The notes beneath the pieces are model-generated. The model saw only the letters and a list, made by a program, of their open reading frames with translations. It was not told the DNA's origin and ran no database searches. The position numbers and the translations under genes were made by a program. A stretch of 63,917 nt of DNA, filler included, from Psammoneis japonica (Eukaryota), in the NCBI GenBank assembly GCA_008632985.1. It is 3 parts of 3 records of this genome, joined end to end, with 100 filler letters (N's around TTAATTAATTAA, not from the genome) between each part and the next. Parts side by side here need not be neighbours in the genome. Positions count along the whole stretch, not along the records: positions 1 to 26,945 come from QPGO01000420.1; positions 27,046 to 54,433 come from QPGO01000415.1; positions 54,534 to 63,917 come from QPGO01000495.1. One strand, written 5' to 3'. Below, one piece after another: positions 1-57,293 of the stretch. Within the stretch, counting starts at the first letter, position 1; the number at the start of each line of letters is the position of its first letter.

Positions 1-2228
1 AAACAACATGTTTGTTTTCCTTGAAAAGACACCTTTGTTTTCTCTGAAAAGACATGCTTGTTTTCCGTGAAACGACATGTTTGTTTTCCTTGAAACCACA
101 TGTTTGTTTTCCTTGAAACCACGTGTTTGTTTTCCTTGAAACCACGTGATTGTTTTCCTTGAAAATGCATGTTTGCTTTCCTTGAAACAACACGTTTGTT
201 TTCCTTGAAACGACACGTTTGCTTTCCTTGAAACGACATGTTTGTTTTCCTTGAAACCACATGTTTGTTTTTCTTGAAATGACACCTTGGTTTTCTCTGA
301 AAAGATGTGTTTGTTTTCCTTGAAACGACACGTTTGTTTTCCTTGAAACAACACATTTGTTTTCCTTGAAAAGATGTGTTTGTTTTCTTTGAAACAACAT
401 GTTTGTCTTTGAACTTTTCACTGAAACGACATGTTTGTTTTCATTGAAAAGACACGTTTGTTTTCCTTGAAAAGACATGTTTGTTTTTTTTGAAACAACG
501 TGCTTGTTTTTCTTGAAACGACATGTTTGTTTTCCTTGAAAAGACATGTTTGTTTTCTCTGAAACCACATGTTTGTTTTCCCTGAAACAACACATTTGTT
601 TTCCTTGAAAAGACATGTTTGTTTTCCTTGAAAAAACATGTTTGTTTTTCTTGAAAAGACCTGTTTGTTTTCCTTGAAACGACACGTTTGTTTTCCTTGA
701 AAAGACACATTTGTTTTCCTTGAAAAGACACATTTGTTTTCTTTGAAAAGACATGCTTGTTTTCCATGAAACGACATGTTTGTTTGTTTTCTTCGAAACA
801 ACGCGTTTGTTTTCCTTGAAAAAACACGTTTGTTTTTCTTGAAAAGACATGATTTTTTTCCTTGAAAAGACATGTTTGTTTTCCTTGAAACGTCACGTTT
901 GTTTTCCTTGAAAAGACATGTTTTTTTTCTCTGAAACGACACGTTTGTTTTTTTTGAAACGACGTGTTTGTTTTCCTTGAAAAGACATGTTTGTTTTCTC
1001 TGAAACCACATGTTTGTTTTCCCTGAAACAACACATTTGTTTTTCTTGAAAAGACACGTTTGTTTTCCTTGAAAAGACATGGTTGTTTTCCATGAAATGA
1101 CATGTTTGCTTTCCTTGAAACCACATGTTTTCCTTGAAAATGCATGTTTGCTTTCCTTGAAATGACACGTTTGTTTTCCCTGAAGTGACGTGTTTGTTTT
1201 CCTTGAAAAGACGTGTTTGTTTTCCTTGAAAAGACACACTTGTTTTCCTTGAAACAACACATTTGTTTTCCTTGAAAACGCACGTTTGTTTTCCTTGAAA
1301 CGACATGTTTGTTTTTAAGACATGTCTGTTTTCGTTGAAATGACATGTTTGTTTTTCTTGAAATGACACGTTTGTTTTCTCTGAAAAGACATGTTTGTTT
1401 TCCTTGAAACGACATGTTTGTTTTCCTTGAAAAGACATGTTTGTCTTCCTTGAAAAGACATGTTTGTTTTCCTTGAAATGACACGTTTGTTTTCCTTGAA
1501 ACCACATGTTTGTTTTTCATGAAATGACACCTTGGTTTTCTCTGAAAAGATGTGTTTGTTTTCCTTGAAATGACGCGTTTGTTTTTCTTGAATCAACACG
1601 TTTGTTTTCCTTGAAAAGATGTGTTTGTTTTCTTTGAAACAACGTGTTTGTCTTTAAACGACATGTTTGTTTTAGCTGAAACGACACGTTTGTTTTCCTT
1701 GAAAAGACACGTTTGTTTTCCTTGAAAAGACATGTTTGTTTTCTTTGAAACGACACGTTTGTTTTTCTTGAAACGACATGTTTGTTTTCCTTGAAAACAC
1801 ATGTTTGTTTTCTCTGAAACCACATGTTTGTTTTCCCTGAAACAACACATTTGTTTTCCTTGAAAAGACATGTTTGTTTTCATTGAAAAAACATGTTTGT
1901 TTTCCTTGAAAAGACATGTTTGTTTTCCTTGAAACAACACGTTTGTTTTCCTTGAAAGGACACGTTTGTTTTCCTTGAAAAGACGTGTTTGTTTTCTTTG
2001 AAAAGACATGCTTGTTTTCCATGAAACGACGTGTTTGCTTTCCTGGAAACCACATGTTTGTTTTCCTTGAAAACACACATTTGTTTTTCTTGAAACAACA
2101 CATTTGTTTTCCTTGAAAAGACATGTTTGTTTTCCTTGAAACCATGTTTTTGTTTTGCTTGAAACCGCGTGTTTGTTTTCCTTGAAATGACACGTTTGTT
2201 TTCCTTGAAAAGACATGTTTGTTTTCTT
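1..2228 (-). repeat. 23-bp satellite array (monomer consensus TTTCAAGGAAAACAAACATGTCN, read on the minus strand here)
   Basis: Continuous tandem copies of (GA)CATGTTTGTTTTCCTTGAAA with a 23-nt period; the ORF track shows the 23-aa cyclic peptide FQGKQTCLFKENKHVVSRKTNMS in all three frames. Confidence 0.97.
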
Positions 2229-3185
2229 TGACTTCAAATCCTTGAGAGGAACCCAGGATGCAGTCCCATCCTTCCACTCGACTTGCAGGTCCCAGCCTGC
2301 AGTCGTCCTCCCAGGAGCACGCCTGCCAGTCTTGGTCATTGTGCACCCGTCATTGGCCGTTGCAGCACGGTGCAATGTGCAGCTGCCAATGAGAGTTGAT
2401 GCATCATGGCAACGTGCTGCAATTTAAATGTCACAAAGGTCGTGACAAAAACAACCTTTTGTCTGCATGCATGCTGCATCATGAATTTTTGGCGGAGTGG
2501 TTCATCGCAACCATTGGGCAGGAGGCCAGGGGTTCGAAACCCTGAGTGGGAGTTGTCTGCAGCAACGTTGATCACTGTCGAGCGCACAAAACTCTGTGCA
2601 GTTCTGTGTGTTCCTTTGCACGCACCCACACTGTTCCACCAAAACCGCGCAGTGTCAGTGCACGTCAGCAAAGAGCCGCGTGGATGCGCGACACATGGGG
2701 ATGAGTGCAGTGTGCAGCTGCTGACAAGAGCCAATGCATCACGGCGACGTGCTGCAATTTAAATGTCACAAAGGTCGTGACAAAAACAACCTTTTGTCTG
2801 CATGCACACTGCAACAGGCATCACGTCAGTGATCGACTGTTTCCTTCATGATCTGGCGGGCATTCCCTTCAGAGTCGATCTGAGTGAATGGGTTCTCTGC
2901 AGTTGTGTCAGCAGCATGGGAGTCGTTGGATCCATCAGGGAATTCCACGTCGCATGTCCTCAAGTCATTCCCAGTGCCAGCAGGAACCCCGTCACCATCT
3001 CACTTGTGTGCAATGACCCCAGCATGAGTCAGCTCGCCTCCTCGTGGTGACATGACTTGAGCTGTGAGACACCCATCCAGCCCTTCCAGGGTGTGCTCAT
3101 CAGCTTCCGGTTTGGAAGCGTCGGGTTCCACAGGTTTGACGGCATCGTCCCATTTGTCCATGAAGTCATCAGGGAGTTCAGGGAA
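2229..3185 (-). mobile_element. Ty1/copia (CoDi-like) pol fragment, integrase-RT linker region, interrupted by a tRNA-like repeat (about 2375-2808)
   Basis: Minus-strand peptides EADEHTLEGLDGCLTAQVMSPRGGE, VEFPDG...AENPFTQIDSEGN and TTAGWDLQVEWKDGTASWVPLKDLK resemble motifs of diatom Copia polyproteins; frames are broken. Confidence 0.75.
2375..2808 (+). repeat. About 335-bp tandem unit with tRNA-like A/B boxes (SINE-like); second copy at about 35786-36157
   Basis: TGGCGGAGTGGTT (A-box-like, about 2490) and CAGGGGTTCGAAACCCTG hairpin (B-box, about 2527); TTTAAATGTCACAAAGG recurs at 2423 and 2758. Confidence 0.55.
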
Positions 3186-4806
3186 GCCATGTCGTTTCAA
3201 GGAAAACAAACGCGCCATTTCAAGGAAAACAAACATGTTGTTTCAAGGAAAACAAGTGTGTCTTTTCAAGGAAAACAAACATGTCGTTTCAAGGAAAACA
3301 AACGTGTGAACGACATGTTTGTTTTCATTGAAAAGACATGTTTGTTTTCCTTGAAACGACATGTTTGTTTTCCTTGAAAAGACACACTTGCTTTCCTTGA
3401 AACAACATGTTTGTTTTCTTTGAAACAACACGTTTGTTTTCCTTGAAAAGACACATTTGTTTTCCTTGAAACAACATGTTTGTTTTCCTGGAAATGGCAT
3501 GTTTGTTTTCCTTGAAACGACATGTTTGTTTTCAAGAAACGACGTGTTTATTTTCCTTGAAACGACATGTTTGTTTTCCTTGAAAAGACATGTTTGTTTT
3601 CTTTGAAACCACATGTTTGTTTTCCTTGAAATGACATGTTTGTTTTCCTCAAAAAGACATGTTTGATTTCCTTGAAACGACATGTTTGTTTTCCTTGAAA
3701 CGACATGTTTGTTTTCCTTGAAAAGACACATTTGTTTTCCTTGAAACAACACGTTTGTTTTCAATGAAACGACGTGTTTGTTTTCCTTGAAAAGACACAT
3801 TTGTTTTCCTTGAAACAACATGTTTGTTTTCCTTGAAATGGCATGTTTGTTTTCCTTGAAACGACACGTTTGTTTTCAAGAAACGACGTGTTTGTTTTCC
3901 TTGAAACGACATGTTTGTTTTCATTGAAAAGACATGTTTGTTTTCCTTGTAACCACATGTTTGTTTTCCTTAAATTGACACGTTTGTTTTCCTTGAAACA
4001 ACATGTTTGTTTTCATTGAAAAGACATGTTTGTTTTCTTTGAAACGACATGTTTGTTTTCCTTGAAACCACGTGTTTGTTTTCCTTGAAAAGACACATTT
4101 GTTTTCCTTGAAACAACATGTTTGTTTTCCTTGAAACCACATGCAAACGTGTCTTTTCAAGGAAAACAAACGTGTCTTTTCAAGGAAAACAAACGTGTCG
4201 TTTCAAGGAAAACAAACAGGTCTTTTCAAGAAAAACAAACATGTTTTTTCAAGGAAAACAAACATGTCGTTTCAAGGAAAACAAACATGCCATTTCAAGG
4301 TAAACAAACATGTTGTTTCAAGGAAAACAAATTTGTCTGTTCAAGGAAAACAAACATGTGGTTTCAGGGAAAACAAACATGTCATTTCAAAGGAAATCAA
4401 ACATGTCTTTTCAATGAAAACAAACATGTCGTTTCAAGGAAAACAAACATGTGTTTTCAAGGAAAACAAACATGTGGTTTCAAGGAAAACAAACATGTGG
4501 TTTCAAGGAAAACAAACATGTCGTTTCAAGGAAAACAAACATGTTGTTTCAAGGAAAACAAACATGTCTTTTTAAGGAAAACAAACATGTCGTTTCAAGG
4601 AAAGCAAACGTGTCATTTCAAGGAAAACAAACATGTGTTTTCAAGGAAAACAAACTTGTCTGTTCAAGGAAATCAAACATGTCTTTTCAATGAAAACAAA
4701 TGTGTGTTTTCAAGGAAAACAAACACGTTGTTTCAGGGAAAACAAACATGTCTTTTCAAGGAAACCAAACATGTCTTGAAAACAAACATGTCGTTTCAAA
4801 GAAAAC
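3186..4806. repeat. 23-bp satellite array with internal orientation switches (about 3307 and 4141)
   Basis: Monomers read + at 3186-3306, - at 3307-4140 and + at 4141-4806. Confidence 0.95.
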
Positions 4807-6170
4807 ACTCCTCCCTTGGCCGGATGTGCCACATGGCACCAACCCATCCTGCCTGACAGAGGGAGTGCATGGTCAAATTTGCAAGTCCGCTGTGCAGATG
4901 CGCCACATGGCGACAACCCATCCTGCAATGAGAGGGAGAGTTGGACAAATGCTGTGTGATGATGCTGTGCACAACACATGCATCAGAGTGCAAAAAATGT
5001 CAAAAATGTGTGGATTTGCATGATGACAATTTGTCAAAATGTTGCAAAAAATTGTTGTTGCACAATGACAGGCCAACCTCTGGTTGCAAGTTTGCTGCGC
5101 CAATGTCACGACAACTTGTTGAGAATCATGTGTGCCATTTTTCACTGTGTCCACATCGCCGTTTCTGCCTCCACCTTGTTGCCATGTGCCAGTCCGTGGT
5201 TGCATTGCCGCACAATCCTTGGTTTGTCAATTTTTGCAAACAGGGGTGTGATCACAGAACCACTTGCATGCCTGCTTGTTCCTTCGTTTGCTGCCGGCGA
5301 CAGTGTCTGGGCCAAGCAGATCCCNNNNNNNNNNNNNNNNNNNNNNNNNNNNNNNNNNNNNNNNNNNNNNNNNNNNNNNNNNNNNNNNNNNNNNNNNNNN
5401 NNNNNNNNNNNNNNNNNNNNNNNNNNNNNNNNNNNNNNNNNNNNNNNNNNNNNNNNNNNNNNNNNNNNNNNNNNNNNNNNNNNNNNNNNNNNNNNNNNNN
5501 NNNNNNNNNNNNNNNNNNNNNNNNNNNNNNNNNNNNNNNNNNNNNNNNNNNNNNNNNNNNNNNNNNNNNNNNNNNNNNNNNNNNNNNNNNNNNNNNNNNN
5601 NNNNNNNNNNNNNNNNNNNNNNNNNNNNNNNNNNNNNNNNNNNNNNNNNNNNNNNNNNNNNNNNNNNNNNNNNNNNNNNNNNNNNNNNNNNNNNNNNNNN
5701 NNNNNNNNNNNNNNNNNNNNNNNNNNNNNNNNNNNNNNNNNNNNNNNNNNNNNNNNNNNNNNNNNNNNNNNNNNNNNNNNNNNNNNNNNNNNNNNNNNNN
5801 NNNNNNNNNNNNNNNNNNNNNNNNNNNNNNNNNNNNNNNNNNNNNNNNNNNNNNNNNNNNNNNNNNNNNNNNNNNNNNNNNNNNNNNNNNNNNNNNNNNN
5901 NNNNNNNNNNNNNNNNNNNNNNNNNNNNNNNNNNNNNNNNNNNNNNNNNNNNNNNNNNNNNNNNNNNNNNNNNNNNNNNNNNNNNNNNNNNNNNNNNNNN
6001 NNNNNNNNNNNNNNNNNNNNNNNNNNNNNNNNNNNNNNNNNNNNNNNNNNNNNNNNNNNNNNGAGCTTCTTGTGGGGTGCAGATGCTGTTCTCCTGCACA
6101 TGGAATCGTGTTGGTTTGCTTCCGTCAGTGCATTCTTGCACAGAATTCAAGGCAAACTCATGTTGTTTTA
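4807..6170 (-). repeat. Copy of dispersed repeat family A spanning an N gap (5325-6062)
   Basis: 4807-5324 matches about 23665-24180 directly; 6063-6170 is the reverse complement of about 13630-13740. Confidence 0.85.
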
Positions 6171-7600
6171 AGAAAGACAAACGTGTCATTTCAAAAAAAA
6201 AGTCAATTCAAGGAAAACAAATGAAAACAAACATGTCGTTTCAAGGAAAACAAACGTGTCATTTTAAGGAAAACAAACATGTGGTTTCAAGGAAAACAAA
6301 CATGTGGTTTCAAGGAAAACAAACATGTCTTTTCAAGGAAAACAAACATGTCGTTTCAAGGAAAACAAACACCTCGTTTCAAAGAAAACAAACATGCCAT
6401 TTCAAGGAAAACAATCATGTTGTTTCAAGGAAAACAATTGTGTGTTTTCAAGGAAAACAAACATGTCCTTGAAATCAAGGAAAACAAACATGTCGTTTCA
6501 CGGAAAACAAGCATGTCTTTTCAATGAAAACGAGCGTGTCTTTTCAAGAAAAACAAACGTGTCCTTTCAAGGAAAACAAACGTGTTGTTTCAGGGAAAAC
6601 AAACACATGGTTTCACAGAAAACAAACATGTTTTTTCAAGAAAAACAAACATGTCTTTTCAAGAAAAACAAACATGTTGTTTCAAAGAAAACAAACATGT
6701 CTTTTCAAGGAAAACAAACATGTGGTTTCAAGGAAAACAAACATGTGGTTTCAAGGAAAACAAACATGTCTTTTCAAGGAAAACAAACATGTCTTTTCAA
6801 GGAAACCAAACATGTGGTTTCAAGGAAAACAAACATGTGGTTTCAAGGAAAACAAACATGTCTTTTCAAGGAAAACAAACATGTGGTTTCAAGGAAAACA
6901 AACATGTCGTTTCAAGGAAAACAATCACGCCATTTCAGAGAAAACAAACATGTTGTTTCATGGAAAACAAATGTGTCTTTTCAAGGAAAACAAACATGTC
7001 GTTTCAAGGAAAACAAACATGTTGTTTCAAGGAAAACAAATGTGTCTTTTCAAGGAAAACAAACATGTTGTTTCAAGGAAAACAAACATGTCGTTTCAAG
7101 GAAATCAAACATGTCTTTTCAATGAAAACAAACATGTCGTTTCAAGGAAAATAAACACGTCGTTTCAAAGAAAACAAACATGCCAAGGAAAACAAACATG
7201 CCATTTCAAGGAAAACAAACATGTTGTTTCAAGGAAAACAAGTGTGTCTTTTCAAGGAAAACAAACATGTCGTTTCAAGGAAAACAAACATGTCTTTTCA
7301 ATGAAAACAAACATGTGTTTTCAAGGAAAACAAACACGTTGTTTCAAGGAAAATAAACACGTCATTTCAAAGAAAACAAACATGCCATTTCAAGGAAAAC
7401 AATCATGTTGTTTCAAGGAAAACAAATGTGTGTTTTCAAGGAAAACAAACATGTCGTTTCAAGGAAAACAAACATGCCATTTCAAGGAAAACAAACATGT
7501 TGTTTCAAGGAAAACAAATGTTTCTTTTCAAGGAAAACAAACATGTCTTTTCATTGAAAACAAACATGTCGTTTCAAGGAAAACAAACATGTTGTTTTGA
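6171..7600 (+). repeat. 23-bp satellite array
   Basis: Tandem 23-mers. Confidence 0.96.
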
Positions 7601-7604
7601 AAAA

Positions 7605-8212
7605 TGCTGGTGTGCTGACACAAACACAGGCAGTTTGTGTGCTGTTGGCGATTGGTTCACTGTTGCTTGATCAGTGGCCCCAATGGCGCAACATCTCACA
7701 ATTCTAGAACCTGCTGATGCTGCTCAACACTCTGTCTTGTCTTGCGCCCAATTCTCAGCCATCATGGTGGCATTTGGTCGCTTTGTCACAGCCAGTGCAC
7801 TGTGATGTTCATCGCCTGGAACGGGCATTGCAAACGGTCTGATGGCATCATTGCGATCAATTGATTTTTGTGGCAAGCGCCATGTTGGTCCCATGGTTGC
7901 TCGCGCAATTGCTGAGTCCTTTGTGTGTGTCAACATTCATGGACATGAACAACATGCTCTTGGAGACCAGAGCTGTGATCCGTCAGACATGACGTCATCA
8001 CACGAAATGTTTGATCATGTGGATGGAACATGTTGGCTGAGACACGCAAACATTCGTGATGAAGACAACACAATGATTTGTGCACTGTCTGTCATTTGAC
8101 CACACACATCTCATCAATCAAAGTGCATCATCAAATTGTTTGGACGCTGCACACGTGGATGCATGTCTGTTGGACATTGTCGCTTGGGGGCAACGCCACC
8201 TGCTCATGGGTT
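7605..8212. repeat. Unclassified dispersed repeat (family B); related copies at about 19727-19905, 39210-39693 plus 40220-40320, and 41279-41765
   Basis: Shared blocks such as GGCGATTGGTTCACTGTTGCT and CACAATTCT(A/G)GAACCTG. Confidence 0.8.
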
Positions 8213-8323
8213 CGCCAAGCAGAAACCGCCAAATCGGCACGAGAGCCATGCATTTTTCTCACTTTCCTCCACTCACACAAGTGGATGCTCACGCATCGAA
8301 ACGCGAACAACTGCTGATGCGCC

Positions 8324-11059
8324 ATGGCCGCTGCTGCAGCCTTTGTTGCCTGTCTTGCGCGTTGTGGGCACAGTGCACAGACGCGCACCCACATGGCCCG
8401 TCAAGGCTTTCCTGCTGTCGAGGACCTGGAGCAGGTCCCTTTGACTGAAATTGCCGACATGACGAAGGGCACCATGAAAAGCGTGGGTGCCGCTGCCAGC
8501 CCTCAAGTCCGCTTTCCACACCTGGCAAATCGAAAGCTCAAGGCACTGCACGCATGGATTGACTGCCGCAGAGCCTGGAACCAACAGCCGACCGCTGCTC
8601 TCTTCGCTGGCGACGTTGTTGGAACATGGGCGGCACGTCTGATGGAACTGGAGCAATTCAAGTCCGCCGACTCGGACGACGAATTGGCTGCCAAAACGGC
8701 CGTGGAGCTCAAGAACCCACACAACTGGCCCACCTTCCAAGAGTTGCTGGAGACCGAACTGCGCCACCACCGCAGCACCGTCGCCGGAGTTCCCCTCATC
8801 TGTCCAGAGTCTTGGCTGCCACCTGCGCTGCCATTGACGAGGACCTCATTGCTGCCACCCACCTTGCGGGCGCTCAGCATGCGCAGGACAGGCAACGACT
8901 GCATGATCTCCTGAAGAAGTCAGTGATGGGGGGGCCCGGATGGGCTTTTGTCAAACCTTCCAATCGCAGCCGCGATGGTCGCACTGCTTTCTTTGCACTT
9001 GAGAGGCAGGCGGAAGGATCAGCCGCCGCCACCACCCAAAAGAACCATGCTCATGCACAGATTGCTGCCGCGAAGTGCACCGGACGGGGTCGATTTGCAT
9101 TTGACCAGCACATTCAGCGTCATCAAAAGGCTCACAACGACTTGTCTGAGCTTGATGAACTGGTGGCCGAGACCAAGAAGGTCTCTGACTTTCTGAAGGG
9201 CATCTCCGACCGGAGTGCTCTTGACGGTCCCGAGTGAGAGCAAGTCCAAAAGCTCCGCGACGCCAAGAAGGCCAAAAAGAAATGCAAAGCTGCTGCTGTG
9301 TCCTTGGAAGCTGAGTCGGTCGATGCCGAAACTCTCGCTGTAAAGAAAGCGGCTGTTGCCGAGCCTGCTGCTCAACCTGCTGATGCACCGAAAGACTCCG
9401 ACGAGCCTGGCGAACCTGCCGCCAATGCAGGCACCCAGTTTGGATGCAGCGCACATGAGAAACCTCAGAATGAGGAATGAACAGTTGCGCCAGCACTGAA
9501 AGGCACAGAGCCGAATGTCGCTAAACCTGCTGGCACTGTTTGTTTGTCTGGGTGATTCTCAAAGGATGTGCGTGTCTCTCTGTCATCTGCTGGAAATTCA
9601 GATGATGAAGCCACCACTGATTTAGACTCGCACGCTGACACGTGTGCTGTTGGGTCCAATTTTGTGATGTGCTCTGACATCGACAGAACTGTCGTGGTGC
9701 ACCCCCACTCCGAAGAGCACGCACCAATGGAAAACACTCCTGTTTGCACGGCTGCTGCCGTGTGGGTTGATCCAACTGATGGACAACCGCGCTTGCTGCC
9801 AGTCCACGAGGCCATGTTTTTTGGGGACAAGATGACCAACACCCTTCTGTGCCCCAACCAACTGCAAGCAAATGGGCTGATTGTCCACGACACCCCTTGC
9901 CAGTTTGATCCGACTGGCAAGCACTCCATTGCTTTCCCTGGCTTGAAGATCAGGGTGCCGCTGCAAACAAGAGGCGTTGCTTCTGTCTTTGATTCACACG
10001 AGCCAACAAATGAGGATCTGAAGAACCTCCCCTGGCTGGAACTCACATCGCCCCCAAGATGGGAGCCTTCTGCTGATGCCATGGCGCAAAAGGAGGAAGC
10101 GCGTGCATGTGCCAGTGTGCGCCAAGGATCAGCAAAGTCGGGCGGATGGTCGACGACAATGAATGTGACCAGGTGTGTTGCTTCCATTCATTCACACCAA
10201 ATGTCCTGTCATGATGAGAGCGTCATTGTGGACACTGATGACAACAATTCATTGCATCGCCGCATGGTTGCTCAGGTGAATGTCTCCCACAACGACACCG
10301 AGGGAGACGGGCCACATGACCGGCATGACCTGGATGTCCACCTGGATTGTGCCGAGCGGAAACGGGTGCATGCACTGTCGACCTTGAGTCGTGCATCAAC
10401 TGTCACGCCCGAGACACTCTCTAAAAGGTGGAACATTGGCCTGACGGCTGCTGAGAACACCATCAGAGTGATGACCCAGGCAGGGGTCCGCAATGTCTGC
10501 ACACCATCCGAACGGAAAGTCCGGAAGAAAGCCCCTTGGCTCAAGTTCCCTGCTGTCAAGGGACGACTCTACTCTGACCAGATGTTTTCAAAGGTCAAAT
10601 CAACACATGGCAAGATGGGAGGAAGCGCACTTGCCAACGGAAGAGGGTGTGACAGGTTCCATCCTTGGAAGAGGAAACAGGACCACCCAGATGCCGTCAT
10701 GTCATTTGTGCATGACGTTGGCACACCACAGGTCCTTGTGTCGGATGGCATGCTGGAAATGGCGGAAGGCCAGACCAAGGAGATCTGCAAGGAATGCAGG
10801 ATGCACCAGGAGGTGTCCACTCCATGCAGCCCCTGGCAGAACCTGGCAGAGGCATCCATTTGTGAGTTGAAGAAAAGAGTCCTTGTGACTCTGCGCTGGA
10901 CTGGCGCTCACAGACGACTTCAGCCCCACAGTGCCAAATGGACATTTGACATCCGACGCATGATTGCAGCCAGTGTGTCAGACATGGGAGGGCGAGTCCC
11001 AGAAGAGGAGGCAAGAGGTTCAACACCCAACATCTCTTCCCTCTCTCTCTTTGATTGGT
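8324..11059 (+). mobile_element. Decayed Ty1/copia (CoDi-like) gag-protease-integrase, truncated by satellite at 11060
   Basis: Gag-like ORF pieces 8324-9480; aspartic protease motif LDSHADTCAVG (about 9622); integrase motifs LVSDG and TPCSPWQNLAE; ends at LFDW; several frameshifts. Possible degenerate PBS (CGGCACGAGAGCC) at 8235-8247, low confidence. Confidence 0.88.
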
Positions 11060-42288: not shown

Positions 42289-42389
42289 TTAATTGTACAT
42301 AGCTTGATAACCACGGTACTGTACAGCAACGTACAGTAAGAGAAAAACTTTGAATGCTATGTTAACGGTGACTACTGTACATGAAACAT

Positions 42390-47144: not shown

Positions 47145-48158
47145 GCGCGATTGTGCGCAACGAAAATGGACAGAAAAGCCAGGGTCAACCAACTGCAAAG
47201 TTTTTTTCTGCAGCAATCAGATTGCAATCAGTTGATTGCATTGCTGTGGAACAGCAATTGGTCAATTGCAATCGCGCAGCGATTGCGCGGTCTGACGAAC
47301 AGGTTGCAATCGCAGCTGCAACCACCCCGCCGGCCAGGCGCGCCCCCCGCAGAAAAGCCCACCACAGGCGAAGAAATTGAGCTGTTTTGCTGATTTTGGC
47401 TAAAAAAAAGAGCTCGAATTTTGATTGGCTGATTGCAATCGCAGTCGCAAACTCGACTGCAATGACCTGATTGTCGGGAAAGAGCCGAGGTCGCAATCAC
47501 AGTCGACTGTTGCAATCAATTGCAATCGAAATTCGAGCTCTTTTTTTAGCCAAAATCAGTGAAATGGCTCGATTTCTTTGCCTGCCGGCGGGCTTTTCTC
47601 CTGCGCGGAGTGCGCTCTTTCGCAGAGAGCACCCCTGCGCGGGGGGCGCACCTGGCCGGCGGGGCGATTGCCAATCACAATGGGAGTCATTCGAAAATGT
47701 CTCATGGGTCATGATCAATGTTTTGCATGAGGAAAAACACAAAATTGTGTGGAAATGCACACAATGTCATGTGAGAGAGTGATTGGAGCTGGTGACTTTT
47801 TGGGAACTGAGTTGTGGTGCCATCTGGTTGACGGCGTTGGCCTTCACTGTGTGAATCAAAATGTCGTCAATCAGACAGCATTTCAATTGATTTCCCGAGA
47901 AGTTGACATTTGCACACAGATGGACAGACTGACTGACAACAATTGTTTTTAGCACTCTCCTGCACAATTTCTGCGTGATGACTCTCAGGACCTGAATGAT
48001 TCCTGTTGGATTGCAATCTGTTCGTCAGACCGCGCAGCCAACCAATTGCTGTTCCACAGCGATGCAATCATCTGATTGCAATCTGATTGCTGCAGAAAAC
48101 TTTGCAATTGGTTGACCCTGCTTTTTTCCATTTTCTGTCCATGCGCAATCACGTGTCA
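47145..48158. mobile_element. Foldback/MITE-like element with nested inverted repeats
   Basis: 47145-47310 is inverted at 48009-48158; 47324-47430 is inverted at about 47515-47665; repeated palindrome GATTGCAATC. Confidence 0.65.
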
Positions 48159-48747
48159 AAGAGCATGTGCAACACCAGACGGGCGGGACCGACGTGTGCG
48201 CGCACACGCAGACGGAATTGCACCATCCATCCATCCATCCATCCATCCATCAGTCCAGCCATGCATTGACCGTCAAGCAAGAATTTCATCACAAAACGTT
48301 CACAAAACAAGACAGTGCTCCGGGAGCGAAGAAGCAATGGTCCATGGCAAGGCACTGAGGAAGTGGGGAGATGGCGGAGACTGAGATGAGATGCGCAATG
48401 GCAGAGCCCTCCGACCAGGATGAAAGGCTTTCGTCTGACATGCGCTGTCATTGCCACACTTGCTTTGACTGTGAGCGAGCTTGCTTCTCAACAAACAGGT
48501 CTGAACGCAGATCAACAGTGCCCAGCCATGGTGGCATCAACAATCGCCATGGTGAAAAAGAACAGCAACAAAGGCTTTTCAACATTGGATGGTTGTGAAT
48601 CGAGGTGAATGGAAAATTTGTGACAGAAACACAGAGAAATCTGTGAGCGGGCACTTGCCACGACCGCGTGTGGCTCTTGGGGCCTGGCAGGTTTAGCGAC
48701 CATTCTTCTTGTTGTGTTTTTTGATGTGTTTTCAAAAAGCCACATCA

Positions 48748-51700
48748 TGGTGAATTTTTGCCAATCTCAAAGGTTCATCATGACCGGCAAAGCCGAGACC
48801 GTTGCTGTTGGAAATGGTGAATTAAAAGTTCAAACACCAAAATTAGACAGCGCGAAGAAGACGCATGCGTCAGCGCTCATGTGCTCCACGTGAGGCACTG
48901 AAACTGCCGATGGAAGCAGTCATCATTCTCTTTTGACTCTTAGAAAGCATTGTGACAACAAGCTTGTCTATTTTAGCCTCAGGATCAGACCTTGGAGGAC
49001 TGAGGTGGCTCTGGAACAGTCGCCAGAAGGACAAATTACAACAGTTAAAAGAGAACAATCCAGCTGAGAGCTGTGAAAAGAAAGCAAGAAAAGAAAAGAG
49101 TCATTCTCACGGTGTGTGAGACATTTTGCTGCTTTGCCTTCTTTGTCATGAGTGGAAGAGGCAGAGGCGGAACTGGCAACAGAAGCCAAGGAAGAGGACC
49201 CTCAGGAAGAAGGGGAAACAAGAGTGGCAAGCAAAGCCACAAGGGCATCAATGATTGTGCCCACCATGTTGGAAGTGCCAAGCAAGCATCTGATTTTCAG
49301 ATTGCCACTGAGTTCATCATCAACTACATTGGGAAGACTTGTGAGTTTGGAAATGACATTGCAGCTGCACTCAACACTTGCACTCCATGTGACATGAGTT
49401 CTAAGAAGCCGACTTTGCAGGTCAGCTTGACTGGAGATGACAAGGTGGACATGCCAAACAGCATGAAATTGAGTTCAAGACAGAATTTGATGCTCACATT
49501 AAGAGGACCCAAACTCATGAGAACAACCTTGTCAAGGCTCATGCTTTGCTCTGGGAGAGATGCTCCAAGGCCATGAAGAACAAGATTCAAGCAAGAACCG
49601 AGTTCCAAACCAAAATTGAAAACGATCCTGTCGAATTGCTCAAGGCCATTAAGGAGCATGCATTGAACTGCCAAGAGCACAGGTGTGACATGGCTGTCAT
49701 CTCAGATTCAATGAGAGCGGTGCTGGAAACCAAGCAGAAGGAGAAGGAGAGTCTCCAAGATTGCACCAAGAGATTCAGGGTTGCAAGGGACATCATGAAG
49801 TCTCACATTGGAGGACCAATTGTCCTCACCAAGGCAGTGCAAGGCATGTCAGAATGCAACGAGCACAATGCGGGTTCTGTCAAGAAGTGTCAAGAAAAGG
49901 CGTTCAGCCAATTGATGGGTTGCATGTGCTTGGAGAACGCAGACCAGTGCAAGTGCAGATCAATTCTAACAGGATTGAACACTCAGCAGTCCCTCAAGAA
50001 CGACCAACATCCCAAGTCCATTGCGGAAGCCAACACGGTGTTGAGCAACCACACTTTCGACTACGTTGGTCAGCCTGACAACCACCATGACAGGAACAAT
50101 CAAAACAGCAACTCTGACTCCAAGAAACAAGAAGAAAACCAAGAAATCACGCTGTCCTTCGCTCAGTTAGAAGGCAAGTGTTGCTGCTGTGGCAAGGCCG
50201 GACACAATTCCAGCAAGTGCTGGGAAAGGCAAGGAAAACCTCAAGCAGAATGGGCCGTCAACAAGGCCAAAGCCAAGCAAGAAGCAAGCAATGCTCAGGC
50301 AAGTGACGACACCAGTGTAGCCAACTCTTCTGCCAAGGAATCCACTGGAACAAAATCTGCTGTTTCAGGATGGGCTGGCACGCACATCGATGCATCTCTC
50401 TGCCAGGATCAATCTGGCAGCATGAGAGACTGGATTTCACTGGACAACCAGTCCACAACCACAATCTTCTGCAATGAGAAGCTTGTCACAGACATCCGTC
50501 CGTCGGATGAAGCCATGCGTTTGCACACCAACGGCGGAGTCCTGGTCACGACACAAGGCCACGGTGCCAGGGTTTGGCGAGACTTGGTTCAACCCAGATG
50601 CAATCACCAACATTTTTGCTTGCTCTGACATGAAGAAGAAACACAGAATCATGAGTGATTCTAAGCAAGACAACGCATTCACCGTTCATCTTCCCAACAA
50701 GAAGGTCAGGTTCAAGGAGGATGGAAAAGGGCTGCACGTTTACAAGCCCAAGACAAATGACACTGGAACTCAGCTCCAATTTGTGCAGAGTGTGGAAGAG
50801 AACAAGAAGTTCTACACTCCACAACAGTTCAAGAAAGCCAAGAGGGCCAGGGAATTGTTGCACGCGTTGGGAAAGCCAGCCGTGAATGATCTGAAGGCCA
50901 TCATTCGTGTGAACAGCATCAAGAACAATCCAGTCACAACGGAGGATGTAGATTTGGCCGAGAAGATTTTTGGACCAGACATTGGAAGTCTAGAAGGCAA
51001 GGTCACAAGGCAGAAGCCGGAGCCAATTGTGGAAGACTGCGTGGAGATCCCGAAGGAGCTCATTGCAGTGCAGCACAAGGTCACTCTTTGCCTGGACAGC
51101 CTCAAGGTGAATGGATTGCCATTCCTCACCACAGTGTCACGAAACATTTTTTATCGCACGGCACAACCGCTCAAGGACTTGACCCAACTAACTTGTCAAG
51201 AAGCTCTGGAAGATGTGCTGTGAGTCTACAACAAGGCCGATTTGAAGGTCACACGCATTCGTTGCGACAACGGATTCAGGCCCATTGGGAATGCACTAGA
51301 AGACAAATTTGATCTCAAGATGAACTGCACACATGCTCAAGAGCATGCCCCAGAAGCCGAAAGAAACAACCGAGTTGTTCAAGAACGTGCCAGGGCAGTC
51401 CATCATCAGCTGCCATTCAAGCATCTGCCAAAACTCATGGTCAAAGTCATGGTTGCCGAAGCTGCTAAGAAGCTCAATTATTTTCCAGCCAAGCACGGCG
51501 TTTCCTAACATTGCAGTCCAAGAATGATTCTCCATCAAAAGAATCTAGACTGTGACAAGAGCTGCAAGATCACGCTCGGCACTTGTGTGCAAGCTCACAA
51601 TGACCCGGACCCCAAGAACACCCAAGAGTCGTCACGGACCTTGGATTGCATTTATTTGCGCCCCACCGACAGCAACCAGATTGGACATGAGTTGCTGCAC

Positions 51701-54017
51701 TTGCAAACCGGCAAGAAGATCACTCGTCACAAGGTCACCCCTGTGCCCATCACTCCTGCCATCACAAAGCAGGTTCATCGTTTGGCTGAAATGAACAAGA
51801 TGCCCAACGGTCTCAAGATTCAGAACCGCACTGGAACTGTTTTGTACGACAGTGCTTGGCTTGCAGGAGTGGATTGTGATGAAGATCAATTTGAAGATGA
51901 AGATTGTGATCTAGAAGAAGACATTGAAACTGAAGACGACGAGGAAGAAGAGCTGGGCTGGGGAGACTGCGACAGAGTTAGTCAAGAAGAGCTGCAAGAC
52001 ACAATTCGAGAACAAGAATTGGATGAAGAAGCCAGCCACATCAGTGAAGAACAAGACGAGACTCAAGAAGAAACCTCCAATGATGAGCATCTTGGAGACA
52101 ATGACGAAGTTGGTTCTCAACCATCAGACGGCAGTGGAATTTCACAAGAAATCGACGACATGATCAACCACATTGATGAACAACAGAGGCTGGAACAAGA
52201 GAAGGAACACTCTCTGGAAGTGCAAGAGATCATTGACGAAATGAAAGACCTGGAGTCTGATGACGAATCTGTGGAGGAGCAGAGTGAAACCGAAGAAAGT
52301 GTCCAAGAAGAGCCTGTTGCTGCATCCAGGGCAGGAAGGACTCTGAAACCTCCAGTTAGATTCAGAGACTGCCAATGCCATCTACAGACTCAAGCTCATT
52401 CACAAGAAGAAGAGTGCAGCTTGGAAACAGCCAGAATCATGGCCGTGACAATGTGTCAGTGGAACGAGAAGATTAGCACGATTTCCACTGATGAAGAAGC
52501 ACATCAATTCATTCAGACTTGCAGCTTGGCACGAGGACTCCAGAAGTTTGGAGAAGAAGGCCACAAGTTGGCAGTGTCAGAGCTGAAGCAAATCCATGAT
52601 GGAGTGGTTTTCAAACCCATTCACATCAAGGACATGACTCCTCTGGAGAGGAAGAGAGCCATGGAGAGCCTCATGTTTCTCACAGAGAAGAGAGATGGAC
52701 GAATCAAGTCAAGGTTGTGTGCAAACGGAAGCACGCAACGAGAGCACATGGACCAAGACGAAACCACCAGTCCGACAGCATCCACAGAATCTGTTCTCAT
52801 CACAGGAGTGATTGATGCCAAGCAAGGCAGAGACATTGTGACAGCGGACATCCCGAACACATTTGTGCAAACGGACATCGAGGTCAAGGATGAAAAGATC
52901 ATCATGAAGATCCGTGGAAGGATGGTGGACATGTTGCTGGAATTGGATCAGACACTTGCCAGGACTGCGTCATGCATGAAGGCAAACACAAGGTTCTCTG
53001 TGTTGAAATGTTGAAGGCGCTCTACGGAATGCTGGTGTCCTCCATTCTTTGTCACAAGAAGTTCCGCAGGGGACATCGAAGGAATCGGATTTGAGATTGA
53101 CCCTTGTGATCCATGTGTCACCAACCGCATCGTGAATGGAAAACAACACACGGTGACATGGCATGTGGACGATTTGAAGTCTAGCCACGTTGACAGCAAG
53201 GTCAACGATGAATTCAAGATTTGGTTGGACAAAACTCATGCGGATGAGATCGGAAAGGTCAAAGTCACGCGTGGAAAGAGGCACGACCATCTAGCCATGA
53301 CTCTAGATTGCTCCATTCCAGGAGCACTGCAAGTTGACATGGTGCTTCACGTGCAAGGAATGGCCAAGGAGTTCTTCAAGGAATTCCCAGAAGAATTGTT
53401 GGGTGACATGGATTGCCCGTGGAGCGAGAAGCTCAACAAGGTGGATGAGACAGCCAAGAAATTAGATCTCAAGCGTGCTCGAGCATTTTGCACTTTTGTG
53501 ATGAAGGGCACATTTGTGTGCAAGAGAGCCAGACAGGACATTCAGCCTGGCATTGCTTTTCTCTCCACCAGGGTCAAGGGTCCGAATGAATCGGATTGGC
53601 CAAAGCTGGTGAGGCTCATGAATTTCCTCAGGACAACCCAGCTTGATGTCGCAGTCATGTCGGCTGGAGACAAAGTCATCATCAAGTGGCACACGGATGC
53701 CGCACTCACAGTCCATCTGGACCACAAAAGTCACACAGGTTCTACCATGACCCTTGAAAAAGGTGTCATGACATCAGTCAGCACGAAACAGAAGATCAAC
53801 ACCAGGAGTTCTACAGAAGCAGAGATCGTCGCAGGAGACGATGTTTTGGCAAAGGTCCTTTGGACCAAGCGTTTTGTTGAAGCTCAAGGTTTTGAAGTCG
53901 AGCGTAACATCATGCATCGAGACAATCAAAGTTGCATGAAACTACAACAAAATGGAAAGGCCAGCTCGGGCAAACGCACGAGACATTTCAACATCAAGCA
54001 TTTTTACTGACAGGATT
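48748..54017 (+). mobile_element. Near full-length decayed Ty1/copia element (gag from 49148; PR, INT, RT, RNase H), 3' end cut off at 54017
   Basis: Zinc knuckle CCCCGKAGHNSSKC; protease WISLDNQST; integrase CDNGF...EHAPEAERNNR; RT KSRLCANG, ADIPNTFVQ, WHVDDL; RNase H DHKSHTG, SSTEAE, DNQS, RTRHFNIKHF; several frameshifts and stops. Possible LTR/PBS junction CA|TGGTGAATT at 48747/48748. Confidence 0.93.
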
Positions 54018-54433
54018 TGAACAGGATTTGGATGCGCGCGAAGCATCGCGCGCTGTTTAGTTTACCGCGCACAGTTTTGTGTGCTTTAGTTCCGCGCGTT
54101 CACGCGCGATGTAGTTTGCTTTCGAGCCACAAGGCTCACAAGAATGACAACAGTAGCCCGATTGTGCCGACTCACACGTCTTTCGGCTCCTGCAACGGTC
54201 TCTGAGCGGAGACTCATCTGCTATTTAGACAGCAGTAAGGAGTTATTGTTTGAATTCTTGCCATTTGCCTTCAATTTCTATCAGATTAACAGTCTTGCTC
54301 ATTGTCAACCCATTGAGCAACCGCCATCGTCGTCGTTGATTTACCAACGACGCTATTTCAATTCTACGTGGACCTCCGTATATATTCTACATACATCGGC
54401 AAGTCTACGCGCATTCAATACCAGGGCATCGGA
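54018..54433 (+). mobile_element. Possible 5' end (LTR) of a younger element inserted into the Copia RNase H
   Basis: Begins with TG right after codons for TDRI; normal TpA content, unlike the host element; runs into the scaffold linker. Confidence 0.4.
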
Positions 54434-54533
54434 NNNNNNNNNNNNNNNNNNNNNNNNNNNNNNNNNNNNNNNNNNNNTTAATTAATTAANNNNNNNNNNN
54501 NNNNNNNNNNNNNNNNNNNNNNNNNNNNNNNNN
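54434..54533. other. Artificial scaffold linker N-TTAATTAATTAA-N
   Basis: 12-mer at 54478-54489. Confidence 0.95.
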
Positions 54534-56158
54534 CTGCTCCACCGACGTGCATGGGAAATGGTGCCAAGAACGGCAGGTGTGAATGTGCTACCCGGCACAT
54601 GGGCTTTCAAACTCAAACGACTCCCGGATGGCACGCCCTTGAAGTGCAAGGCACGATGTTGCGTTCGCGGCGATTTGCAGAAACACGGGATCGATTTTTT
54701 CGAGACCTGCGCGCCGGCAGTGCAATGGTCGTCCATGCGCCTTCTCCTCACCACGGTGCTCAAGGAAGGTTGGACCACACGTCAAGTGGACTGTGCTGCA
54801 GCCTTCTGCCAAGCTGATGTCAAGGAGAAGGTCTGTGTAGAGCCTCCCAAGGGTTTCCAGCCAAAATCGGGCGCCGATCTGGCACCAAAATTGTTGAAAG
54901 GCCCACACGGCCTACGCCAGTCTCCCAAGTGCTTCCATGAAAAGCTGAGGGACGGATTGCTTGAAAGAGGATGGATTCAATCCGCCATTGACCCTTGTCT
55001 TTATTTCAAAAAGGGCATGTCATGTGTGGCGCATGTTGATGATGCCGTGTTCGCCGGCGCATCGGCCCAAGCCTTGGAAGCAGAGATTGCCAAGTTGGGC
55101 ATTTCTGATGATGAGCAACGCCATGTCTTTGATCTACGTGATGAAGGCAAAGTTGGCAACTTTCTAGGTATCAAGATTCAAAAGCTCGAAGACGGCCGAT
55201 TCCTCCTGACCCAACCCGGCCTAATTGAGAAAGTTCTCCGCACCGCACAGATGACTGAGTGCAACGGCGCACCCACTCCTGCCTTGCCTGCTCCTGCTGG
55301 CAGCGATGCCGACGGGCCACCGTTCGATGAGCCTCATGACTGCCGTTCCGTGGTCGGCATGCTGATGTGTCTAGCGTCCAACAGCCGCCCGGACATTGCT
55401 TGCGCGACCCATCAAGTCGCGCGGTTCTCCTGCGCACCCAAGGCCTCCCACGCTGTGGCCATCAAGCGCATTCTTCGTNNNNNNNNNNNNNNNNNNNNNN
55501 NNNNNNNNNNNNNNNNNNNNNNNNNNNNNNNNNNNNNNNNNNNNNNNNNNNNNNNNNNNNNNNNNNNNNNNNNNNNNNNNNNNNNNNNNNNNNNNNNNNN
55601 NNNNNNNNNNNNNNNNNNNNNNNNNNNNNNNNNNNNNNNNNNNNNNNNNNNNNNNNNNNNNNNNNNNNNNNNNNNNNNNNNNNNNNNNNNNNNNNNNNNN
55701 NNNNNNNNNNNNNNNNNNNNNNNNNNNNNNNNNNNNNNNNNNNNNNNNNNNNNNNNNNNNNNNNNNNNNNNNNNNNNNNNNNNNNNNNNNNNNNNNNNNN
55801 NNNNNNNNNNNNNNNNNNNNNNNNNNNNNNNNNNNNNNNNNNNNNNNNNNNNNNNNNNNNNNNNNNNNNNNNNNNNNNNNNNNNNNNNNNNNNNNNNNNN
55901 NNNNNNNNNNNNNNNNNNNNNNNNNNNNGCCCGTGTGCCAAAATTGTCCCCACAAACCAAGCACATCGGCATTCCCCACCATTGGTTTTGCACTAAAGTT
56001 GAGGCTTTGGAGATCAAAATTGAGCCTGTGAGCTCAGCTGCACAGCTTGCTGACCAGTTTGCTAAAGGATTGACTGTTGATCCATTCCGTGCTGGTCGCA
56101 AAGCCCTCATGGGCTGGTGACTGACAGTTCTCCTTCTCTTTTCGGTTGAGAGGGAGAG
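54534..56158 (+). mobile_element. Decayed Ty1/copia RT-RNase H of a different family, with putative polypurine tract GAGAGGGAGAG (56148-56158)
   Basis: WAFKLKRLPDG..KCKARCCVRGDLQ..GIDFFETCAP, HGLRQSP, AHVDD, RPDIAC, TKHI, QLADQFAKGL; N gap 55479-55928. Confidence 0.93.
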
Positions 56159-57293
56159 TCACGAGTCAACAACCGAGTCTGATTCATGGATGACGCTTCC
56201 GGTCATGGATCTCTTCTTCCGGAAGAAATGTCCGTTGAGTCTTCTAGCGACAGCAATCGGAGTGACACACACGACCGTCAGGTCACAATGTCATCTCCAA
56301 TCCCTCGTGAGATCTTCTCACAATTCGTATCTTCAGCGCATCTCATTGTCCCAAAACTGCTTCTCATCATCCTCTGTTGCACTGTACAACCTCAAGAGAG
56401 TCCTGAACTCTCCATCCTGCACAGTGCATTGTTGCATCCCAAGTCCCCACACACTCTGCAGGGGCTCCTGTAAAAAAACAACAATGTCCATGTGCTGCCT
56501 TTTTGCAATGGGTCTCTTTCTTTTCCAAGATTTGCAATGTTGTTTTTTTTCAAGCACTGCACAATTAGAGCCAACATGGTGGTGGGCAGTGGTTGGTGTC
56601 TTGCTGGCAATCGTGGCAGCAGCCACCACAGGAGCATCGACCCTGTCTTCTTGTGTGAACACTCATGCTTCCATGGGATGGTGCTTTTCCTCACAATCAA
56701 GCAGGGCCAAGCCATCCAGAAAAATCAACATGGGCAAGGGTCTCAAGAGCAACCACAGCCATTGCTTGAGGCTGTGTGCGCGTCGCTTCTTTCTCACAAA
56801 ATTTCTCCTCTTTAGACATTTGCAGACACATGATCAAACAGAGATCTCGATTGGTCAAAGAGATCAAAAGCACAAGAGCACCCCAACAGATTGTGCCAGA
56901 GCCTGTGGCAAAAAACAAATGTCCTGTTCTTGGTCGCACCAGCAACAAAGAAAGAGACTTTTGGCGGCAGCCCGGCAGCCAACAAGGGCTCAGAAGCTCC
57001 TGTCTGGGCTGTCACGTGTGACGTTGTTTTGCTTCCCAAGAACAACATTATGCATTCAGAACAATGGCTCTTTTTGCGTCAGTTAACAGGGTATAAGTGG
57101 AGGTGCTGCTTTGTTTGGTCAGTAGAAAGTTCCAAGACAATGAGGTGTCGGGCCACACTTTCTGGGCGAGTGGAGAACAGCACCCGGAGGCTCGAAGCGT
57201 TCACTGTTGATCGATTCGATTGATTCGATTCGTTCATCTTCAGCGACGGGCGGCAAAGCACAAAAACCCAAAACAAAAAAATCAACTCTCACC

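Follow-up and report, generated by a model that had tools for sequence, protein, structure and literature searches.

Evidence for TpA-directed hypermutation of repeated DNA in the diatom Psammoneis japonica

We analysed a 63,917-nt stretch of the genome of Psammoneis japonica (NCBI GenBank assembly GCA_008632985.1; hereafter, the window), in which gene islands at 42.3–47.1 kb and 57.1–63.05 kb are embedded in repeats. The dinucleotide TpA (TA) has almost vanished from the repeats, whereas the genes are ordinary in TA content (the comparison is one of composition, not of the gene mutation spectrum). This pattern is very probably the product of a host mutational process that acts on the DNA itself, in place, and turns TpA into TpG or CpA in repeated, CpG-depleted DNA while adjacent single-copy genes are spared. 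At some 40 TA per kb, the loss comes to roughly 2,000 sites over the window and is almost saturated. A first-pass annotation of the same DNA had noted the depletion and had attributed it to a repeat-targeted adenine mutator of the host; the observation is confirmed by the counts given below, and the attribution stands in part.

Extent and direction of the TA loss

Across 1-kb bins, the observed/expected ratio (obs/exp) of TA is 0.00–0.11 at 1–42 kb, 0.05–0.19 at 47–54 kb and 0.11 at 56–57 kb, versus 0.54–0.89 and 0.51–0.77 in the gene islands at 42–47 kb and 57–63 kb, respectively; the obs/exp of TG and CA in the repeats is 1.2–2.4. Expressed as density, TA occurs 3.18 times per kb in the repeats (49,989 bp) and 44.37 times per kb in the gene islands (10,682 bp), which is a 14-fold fall. 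The window holds 684 TA in total, and 96 of these lie in positions 1–42,300, three of them inside the linker at 26946–27045. At the repeat edges (~42,292, ~47,090 and ~57,050), the TA content switches within at most 100 bp, and the edges coincide with a jump in copy depth along the stretch where reads of one sequencing run, X1, were mapped (depth of ~53 over genes versus 600–19,500 over repeats). The range given in the first-pass annotation holds for most of its length but not for 54,011–54,433, a TA-normal contig end before a linker, and the scarcity resumes beyond that range: a TA-poor repeat that matches 32429–32528 extends from ~63,100 to the window end (63100–63917; obs/exp of 0.36 for TA and 0.41 for CG; 0–4 TA per 100 bp).

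Four lines of evidence agree that the direction of change is from TA to TG or CA, as the annotation had claimed. First, in a mass balance of 35,463 bp of non-satellite repeats against the gene islands, TA falls by 40.5 and CG by 17.6 per kb, and TG and CA rise by 35.3 and 28.7 per kb. The GC content of these repeats is 50.2 per cent versus 47.7 per cent in the genes, and the difference of 2.5 points is that predicted from the TA loss minus the CpG loss.

Second, 39 alignments between repeats of the window (at least 85 per cent identity; 12,310 columns, with some segments present in several pairs) contain 515 isolated mismatches and 98 adjacent doublets. CA<->TG makes up 71 of the 98 doublets, and any other double-transition class at most three. 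We interpret a CA<->TG doublet as one ancestral TA that was hit on opposite strands in the two copies. Such doublets also separate one retrotransposon, Copia family 2, from its genome-wide copies in X1 (at 49265/6, 50652/3 and 53288/9), the two letters of a doublet being linked on individual contigs. Third, where one copy has retained TA, the dinucleotide opposite it in the partner is TG in 13 cases, CA in 11 and TC in one (24/25 TG or CA).

Fourth, conserved tyrosine (Tyr) codons have been lost selectively. As an outgroup we used 223 Copia proteins from public collections, and a Tyr codon was regarded as conserved if Tyr occurred in at least 60 per cent of at least five aligned homologues. 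Only one of the 23 such codons in the window still encodes Tyr; the others have become Cys (nine), His (six), Arg (three, all CGC), Phe (two), stop (one) and Ala (one). Other conserved positions were kept at 506 of 704 sites (72 per cent; Fisher p = 3e-11 versus 1/23 for Tyr). Specifically, in the long open reading frame (ORF) of Copia family 1, Tyr, Cys and His account for 0.2, 3.0 and 4.8 per cent of residues versus ~3.6, 1.2 and 2.5 per cent in relatives (the Tyr range is 2.9–4.4 per cent among the first 40 homologues listed). The RNase H ORF of the same family (259 aa) has no Tyr, and conserved Tyr codons in it have become Cys (18961), Arg (CGC, 19057), Cys (19312) and Cys (19438); in Copia family 3, others have become His (54906), His (55032), Cys (55341), Cys (55368) and His (55977). 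The Tyr counts of the first-pass annotation are exact (one in the 497-aa Copia ORF, none in the 259-aa ORF and 10 in the VDAC gene product). Among the individual replacements that it named, those of Tyr by Cys at 55368 (Tyr in 138 of 161 aligned homologues) and 19312 (Tyr in 63 of 81) are confirmed. The replacements at 54708 (homologues with Tyr 72 versus Phe 67) and at 54882 and 54885 (Val in 74 and Leu in 79 homologues) are plausible, the one at 54645 is ambiguous (Phe 50 versus Tyr 32), and the one at 53105 is unsupported, as none of its five homologues has Tyr; of the positions named, 50437 alone lies outside the alignments. Two further statements of the annotation proved correct, namely that the polarity is opposite to that of the repeat-induced point mutation (RIP) of fungi, and that the loss is separate from CpG decay, which cannot remove TA.

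Sequence context, mechanism and alternatives

CpG decay has nonetheless occurred in the same repeats: besides the CG deficit of the mass balance, 71 of 95 polarised C>T changes are located at CpG. About one third of the TG and CA excess stems from it.

The residual TA is distributed unevenly over its flanks. The ratio of per-kb counts in repeats to those in genes is 0.40 for TTAA and 0.26 for CTAA/TTAG, but below 0.01 for ATAT, ATAC and ATAG. Among 22 sites where one copy kept its TA, 12 are TTAA, which reads the same on both strands and is therefore uninformative on the flank. The strand-combined excess is +25.0 for TGC, +17.5 for TGT, +13.0 for TGG and +8.5 for TGA, versus 13.2, 17.7, 11.4 and 15.9, respectively, expected under random strand choice. 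The mutated A seems, tentatively, to prefer a 3' C or T and to avoid a 3' A.

Three counts suggest a weaker side reaction at CpA, chiefly CAC>CGC, which we treat as a lead. CAC>CGC is the largest polarised A>G class (19/89), CGC/GCG is the sole CpG trinucleotide class that is not depleted (21.5 versus 21.5 per kb), and three conserved Tyr codons have become CGC. In the 23-bp satellite, the commonest variants also create CpG (45 of the 263 units have CATG>CACG, and 96 have GAAAAG>GAAACG); these variants may fit the suspected CpA>CpG side reaction or may be subfamily markers.

The process that we propose is an A:T>G:C transition at the self-complementary TpA, on either strand, carried close to saturation in diatom nuclear repeats; it destroys Tyr codons and removes the stop codons TAA and TAG. 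It may consist of enzymatic base editing, in which adenine is converted to hypoxanthine by a TadA/ADAT-like enzyme or, equally, thymine is modified. The natural tRNA target of TadA and ADAT is a U-A step. Chromatin marks, small RNA or homology could guide the activity to repeats. It would have an additional, weaker activity at CpA, above all CAC>CGC, and would disfavour a 3' A, so that TTAA would be the slowest site. Its function would be a genome defence like RIP, with reverse polarity.

Because TpA is its own reverse complement, A>G after T is the same event in the data as T>C before A. The TpA-directed mutator of the first-pass annotation holds, but the data do not distinguish the adenine target that it named from thymine. 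In a thymine-directed chemistry, a TET/JBP-type dioxygenase would produce 5-hydroxymethyl- or 5-formyl-uracil, bases that mispair with G and would yield T>C. All counts fit such a chemistry equally well, the flank preference can be rewritten as R-T-A, and nothing in the window data speaks against it. We nevertheless consider a thymine target somewhat unlikely. We know of no TpA-specific mutagenic thymine oxidase in diatoms, and TadA and ADAT, with their U-A preference, offer a ready-made adenine specificity. The same preference is ascribed to the adenosine deaminase acting on RNA (ADAR) in the accessible text of a recent preprint (bioRxiv 10.64898/2026.01.13.699255).

Editing could alternatively have taken place in RNA, if ADAR or ADAT performed A-to-I changes at UA in retrotransposon transcripts that were then fixed by reverse transcription and insertion. 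The 5'-U preference of these enzymes matches the observed context (for ADAR, see the same preprint text), three Copia families are affected, and replacements of Tyr by Cys (sense A>G, nine) exceed those by His (six). However, the replacements by His (six) and Arg (three) need hits on the antisense strand. In non-satellite repeats, TG and CA are about equally frequent on each strand, and the order of TG and CA labels contains no strand runs (the lag-1 autocorrelation is 0.026 for repeats, compared with 0.07 for genes and −0.003 for unmutated Copia loci). No strand-coordinated tracts of TG or CA were found in the repeats, where only ~40 per cent of TG and CA is derived from TA, so that moderate coordination would be compatible with this result; nor was there strand asymmetry by element orientation beyond that due to base composition.

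Moreover, the purge extends to the 23-bp and 32-bp satellites, to an element with terminal inverted repeats (TIRs), to a low-copy spacer and to sequences that were duplicated in tandem as DNA. The 23-bp satellite arrays (13,350 bp in total) contain 22 TA. Satellite variants that create TA by G:C>A:T occur at 5 of 1036 positions versus 78 of 930 at other G/C positions (p = 2e-20), and by T>A once in ~2170 versus 28 times in ~1370. Since TA-creating variants are nearly absent, new TA must have been removed or reverted after the arrays grew. Between the units of a 412-bp tandem repeat (14806–15672; 2.1 units), five of the six adjacent doublets are CA<->TG, which indicates that TA was lost after duplication at the DNA level. 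A tandem pair with a unit of ~1.9 kb (38322–40223 and 40391–42292, together 38322–42292; 95.5 per cent identity) differs by seven doublets, four of them CA<->TG, and the two units differ in surviving TA: in its last 300 bp, the unit adjoining the VDAC gene retains six TA where the inner unit has TG or CA, and the reverse is seen twice. The TA retained next to the VDAC gene hints at a position effect.

The low-copy spacer (48147–48680, ~530 bp), situated between two elements, lacks any TA (0 TA at 48,000–48,599). Its depth in X1 is 76 in the corresponding bin and 35 in each of two exact contigs, and one diverged copy is present in a second run, X2. Because this low-copy DNA is purged besides all high-copy DNA (with copy number taken as contig depth in one run), regional targeting seems favoured over strict copy counting, although the spacer has at least one diverged paralogue. 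Finally, among the best 80 tblastn matches of the same Copia clade in metagenomes (a set subject to selection bias), the TA obs/exp of all loci is 0.36–0.93; the Copia family is therefore not intrinsically TA-poor. Together with the purged satellites and tandem duplicates and the involvement of three Copia families, these TA-normal relatives uphold the attribution to the host made in the first-pass annotation. The evidence points to a DNA-level host process rather than RNA editing of retroelements, and we regard the latter as very improbable.

It is similarly improbable that the elements evolved TA avoidance under selection, for instance by a TA/UA-specific nuclease or sensor, with no mutator involved. 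UpA avoidance in RNA viruses and mRNAs lends this idea a precedent (in the part of PMC3829696 available to us). Selection of this kind is difficult to reconcile with the loss of 22 of 23 conserved Tyr residues when 72 per cent of other conserved residues were kept, with broken reading frames, and with an equal depletion of non-coding satellites and spacers. CA<->TG differences at the same site additionally mean independent loss after copying, and the relatives are TA-normal.

Hardly any likelihood is left for a technical artefact, whether introduced by sequencing, base calls, polishing or assembly (a misread modified base in heterochromatin, for example), even though the scaffold contains linkers and N gaps and all three sequencing runs found come from one sample. 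Contigs rebuilt independently from the raw reads of X1, whose sample is possibly the assembly's own, include the same TA-poor repeats and cover them deeply (735 of 3222 pieces with at least 99 per cent identity), making an assembler artefact unlikely, and genes in the same library read with normal TA. A misread base would produce strand-discordant reads instead of stable CA versus TG alleles between copies, and the effects on the encoded proteins form a consistent picture. Gene conversion biased towards GC, or an overall repair bias from AT to GC in the repeats, would agree with their higher GC content and with the predominance of A>G (~41) over C>T (24) among polarised non-CpG changes, but scarcely deserves credence, given that the loss is specific to TA (AT decreases only from 61.9 per kb in genes to 50.9 per kb in repeats and AA and TT increase, while TA drops 14-fold) and that the GC gain equals the prediction from TA loss minus CpG loss.

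Several points weigh against the reading of a TpA-directed host process acting on DNA, or against parts of it. The X1 sample is single and possibly the source of the assembly itself. Of three boundaries examined, one shows the gene-edge effect. A hand count of the 15 single-hit Tyr codons does not support the flank preference, with a ratio of 3' pyrimidine to 3' G of 3:3. Majority polarisation among three copies can mis-assign the direction of change, and the CpA>CpG class may partly be mis-polarised CpG decay. Copies that are 95 per cent alike share most of their mutated TG and CA states (four CA<->TG doublets in 1.9 kb), and most of the TA loss therefore predates the latest duplications; the depletion of high-copy and satellite DNA could in part go back to a single mutated founder and would then not be independent. 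Ongoing activity is deduced solely from the satellite purge and the differences between copies, with no de novo event observed. Regarding the timing of the proposed process, Copia family 2, which has long ORFs and ~25–55 copies by depth, retains more TA than the older block (obs/exp of 0.05–0.19 versus 0.00–0.11); the higher TA content of this younger-looking family fits gradual action after insertion.

Repeats and genes of the window

The window contains linkers of the form N44-TTAATTAATTAA-N44 at 26946–27045 and 54434–54533, which are six-frame stop linkers of the type used for contig joining, as well as several further N gaps. Their presence identifies the window as a stitched pseudomolecule in which adjacency across 26946–27045 and 54434–54533 is not established.

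The first TA-depleted block (1–42292) is composed of 23-bp and 32-bp satellites, Copia fragments and unclassified repeats. Tandem Repeats Finder identified eleven arrays of the 23-bp satellite: one at 6–2231 (plus strand) and ten in both orientations at 3309–4143, 4144–4807, 6223–7597, 11060–11269, 11415–13278, 15705–16353, 16508–17801, 17984–18238, 19907–23308 and 25484–26059. The same program located the 412-bp tandem repeat described above and the 32-bp satellite (36158–37203; 0 TA in bin 36001–37000). Copia family 1 is represented by a protease-integrase part on the plus strand (8563–11061, with the ORF at 9568–11061), which is 43–48 per cent identical to full-length Copia polyproteins (E to 2e-136). 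Matches by tblastn and a hidden Markov model (HMM) add its RNase H end (18943–19722, plus strand) and further fragments at 25007–25618 (plus strand) and 2829–3242 (minus strand). At the gathering level, Pfam detects no family in the repeats at 26–42 kb, which are hence left unclassified.

Downstream of the first gene island, a TIR or foldback element occupies 47090–48140, with inverted matches between 47162–47311 and 48135–48009 and an internal palindrome at 47351–47599; it has three TA in 1 kb and an X1 depth of 970–4750. Copia family 2 follows the spacer (48700–54010, plus strand), and its ORFs encode gag with a zinc knuckle, reverse transcriptase (RT; RVT_2, E of 5e-6, below the gathering score) and RNase H, the 3' end being truncated; its TA obs/exp is 0.05–0.19 and its X1 depth is 1270–2870. 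Copia family 3 (54534–57050, plus strand) consists of RT at 54558–55460 (RVT_2, E of 5.6e-34), an N gap, an RNase H end that reaches 56120 and a TA-poor tail. An HMM built from homologues of Copia family 1 had no match to families 2 and 3, and a Pfam search of 69 repeat ORFs returned only the weak RVT_2 match and two chance-level matches.

Imperfect palindromes of 250–600 bp, with arms 67–75 per cent identical, are located inside repeats at 39670–40242, 41761–42293 and 47351–47599; the first two end the units of the ~1.9-kb tandem pair. Part of the divergence between arms is CA versus TG at former TA sites. At 35878–36044, an 83-bp unit is present twice and includes a motif resembling a tRNA T-arm (GGTTCGAAACCC), possibly from a decayed tRNA-derived short interspersed nuclear element. 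ARAGORN and Rfam scans made no call anywhere in the window. Stop codons in the 50 kb of repeats number 72 for TAA and 43 for TAG versus 1082 for TGA. The erasure of TAA and TAG leads to many long false ORFs (43 of at least 200 aa in the 42 kb of repeats, with lengths that reach 440 aa within the 23-bp satellite), by which gene callers would be misled.

The gene island at 42293–47089 (TA obs/exp of 0.54–0.89; X1 depth of ~53) holds, by Pfam, VDAC (42390–43139, minus strand) and an M23 peptidase (45769–46935, minus strand), with a spliced gene between them at ~44.4–45.0 kb. Contigs of run X2 are spliced here: they skip 43144–43417, 44652–44871 and 45683–45772, whose ends are CT..AC on the plus strand. 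The skipped intervals are GT..AG introns of minus-strand genes, belonging to the 5' part of VDAC, the unnamed gene and the M23 peptidase, respectively; the gene introns seen as joints in X2 contigs are 88–272 nt long. Run X2 is labelled 'DNA?' yet behaves like RNA, and its near-absence over repeats is not taken as silence. The VDAC protein is 60–68 per cent identical to its best homologues, whose sources are named as diatoms (including Nitzschia inconspicua, Seminavis robusta and Fragilaria crotonensis), and we regard the host as a diatom because these homologues carry diatom names. Neither a protein atlas, which gave generic porin clusters, nor the 1064-aa protein described below, with its one distant match, yielded a taxonomic placement.

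The island at 57100–63050 (TA obs/exp of 0.51–0.77) encodes, by Pfam, a Mod(r)/VPS37-like protein (57485–58552, plus strand) and an ABA4-like protein of 1064 aa (59557–62751, minus strand). The latter ORF is intron-free, with the ABA4-like domain at residues 59–181 and ~880 residues that have no Pfam match. One relative of this protein was found among 5.8 billion proteins (lengths of 585–1862 aa), with 32 per cent identity over 41 per cent of the query.

Comparison with known systems

The TA-erasing footprint probably exists in other sequenced organisms. Four of the 223 public Copia proteins are Tyr-poor (P0231, P0334, P0264 and P0228). Three of them keep none of their conserved Tyr residues (0/5 in P0231, 0/8 in P0334 and 0/12 in P0264), which are replaced mostly by Cys or His, and keep ~80 per cent of their other conserved residues. 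Three members of two clusters are partly affected, with 7/12 (P0228), 8/12 (P0350) and 4/12 (P0348) conserved Tyr kept, whereas five control Copia proteins keep 7/8, 7/7, 11/12, 10/12 and 11/11. The Tyr-poor proteins are 35–45 per cent identical to the RT of the window and derive from ENA, NCBI and Logan records. No protein identical to the VDAC of the window was found in the protein collection searched; with the window genome seemingly outside that collection, the Tyr-poor proteins would probably belong to other organisms. If true, such a patchy distribution, with a few Tyr-poor Copia proteins alongside 80 normal best relatives, would allow the enzyme to be sought by comparing genomes for presence and absence.

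Among known processes, CpG methylation decay in diatom transposons also feeds TG and CA in the same repeats, and its traces in the window agree with the 5-methylcytosine that diatom transposable elements carry via DNMT5a (according to the available text of PMC9998398), but it cannot account for the TA loss.

Enzymes with a matching A>G outcome are known from RNA. ADAR hyper-edits repeat-derived double-stranded RNA, and ADAT2/3 or TadA deaminates A34 of tRNA, with a strong preference for a 5' U or T. The resemblance to the window lies in the A>G outcome and this 5' preference. These enzymes act on RNA, whereas in the window DNA is changed, on both strands, in non-transcribed satellites and tandem duplicates, and features of retro-fixed ADAR-type editing (restriction to the transcribed strand, clustering and confinement to retroelements) are absent.

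In the RIP of ascomycete fungi, C:G>T:A changes, mostly CpA>TpA, are introduced at a premeiotic stage by cytosine methyltransferases of the RID/DIM-2 type, and the product is rich in AT and TA. To our knowledge, RIP is the only well-understood case of a eukaryote deliberately mutating its own repeats. Further background on RIP is given in PMC2621366 and PMC9998398, of which parts were available. With RIP, the process in the window shares a dinucleotide-specific transition hypermutation of repeats, the inactivation of transposons, a dinucleotide footprint and a stop at the repeat edge. RIP, however, raises TpA and AT, and in the window TA is lost 14-fold and GC increases from 47.7 to 50.2 per cent. 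As regards the duplicated-sequence rule of RIP, the high-copy DNA of the window is affected throughout, and so is the low-copy 530-bp spacer (by contig depth in one run). The process works like RIP yet is not RIP.

The closest counterpart was described in a preprint of April 2026 on mutation-accumulation lines of Bigelowiella natans, in which TpA changes to TpG or CpA in integrated DNA of nucleocytoplasmic large DNA viruses and virophages (Mettrop et al.; bioRxiv 10.64898/2026.01.13.699255). The first-pass annotation, which knew of no described mechanism, could not have known of this precedent. According to the portions of the preprint available, two viral inserts received 231 of the 302 point mutations in the nucleus; A>G or T>C accounted for 230 of the 231, all stated to lie at TpA. 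The de novo rate was ~1000-fold above background, and the activity was present in only some lines. Genome-wide, 124 clusters were depleted in TpA and enriched in CpA and TpG, TpA-depleted coding sequences were enriched in RT and DDE domains, and an ADAT2-like deaminase was proposed as the enzyme. Our literature search found no report of TpA-directed hypermutation for diatoms and this preprint alone for any organism, subscription journals being outside its coverage.

For the second eukaryotic process of this kind, opposite in polarity to RIP, the first measurements thus date from 2026 and concern a single rhizarian alga. The footprint in a diatom means that the process is not peculiar to a single species or to viral inserts, and that the entire repeat DNA of a genome, including satellites, can be reshaped by it. 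A second, distant lineage becomes available for presence/absence genomics on the enzyme, possibly a natural editor of adenine in double-stranded DNA. For annotators, the footprint is a warning that in such genomes Tyr disappears from the proteins of transposable elements, and that the loss of TAA and TAG stops is accompanied by long false ORFs. It also offers details that can be tested, namely slow TTAA, a favoured 3' C, CAC>CGC and the lack of strand runs. As a tentative proposal, to which we attach limited confidence, diatoms and chlorarachniophytes, and perhaps the stramenopile-alveolate-rhizarian (SAR) group, might share a dedicated natural DNA base editor that flips out either base of a TpA step in double-stranded, marked heterochromatin (A:T to G:C), has a side activity at CpA that regenerates CpG, and serves as the main means of irreversibly killing transposons and integrated viruses.

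As far as the available text of the preprint goes, the process in Bigelowiella has in common with that of the window an A:T>G:C change at TpA, on both strands, confined to foreign or selfish DNA. The flank preference, the CpA side activity, the CpG co-depletion and the base-pair-sharp edges are described here for the window and not in the abstract, Results and Discussion of the preprint; a search of that paper for the terms 'context', 'satellite' and 'diatom' gave no occurrence. The host is rhizarian in the one case and a diatom in the other. The Bigelowiella rate was measured in mutation-accumulation lines, and the process in the window is known from its footprint alone. In Bigelowiella, the measured targets, two viral inserts, remain rich in TA (Rho 0.45; 3.3 per cent TpA), whereas transposable elements, satellites and a spacer in the window have come close to saturation (obs/exp of 0.00–0.19). 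The window adds a new lineage, and a far more extreme form, to a kind of process that has been described once, months ago.

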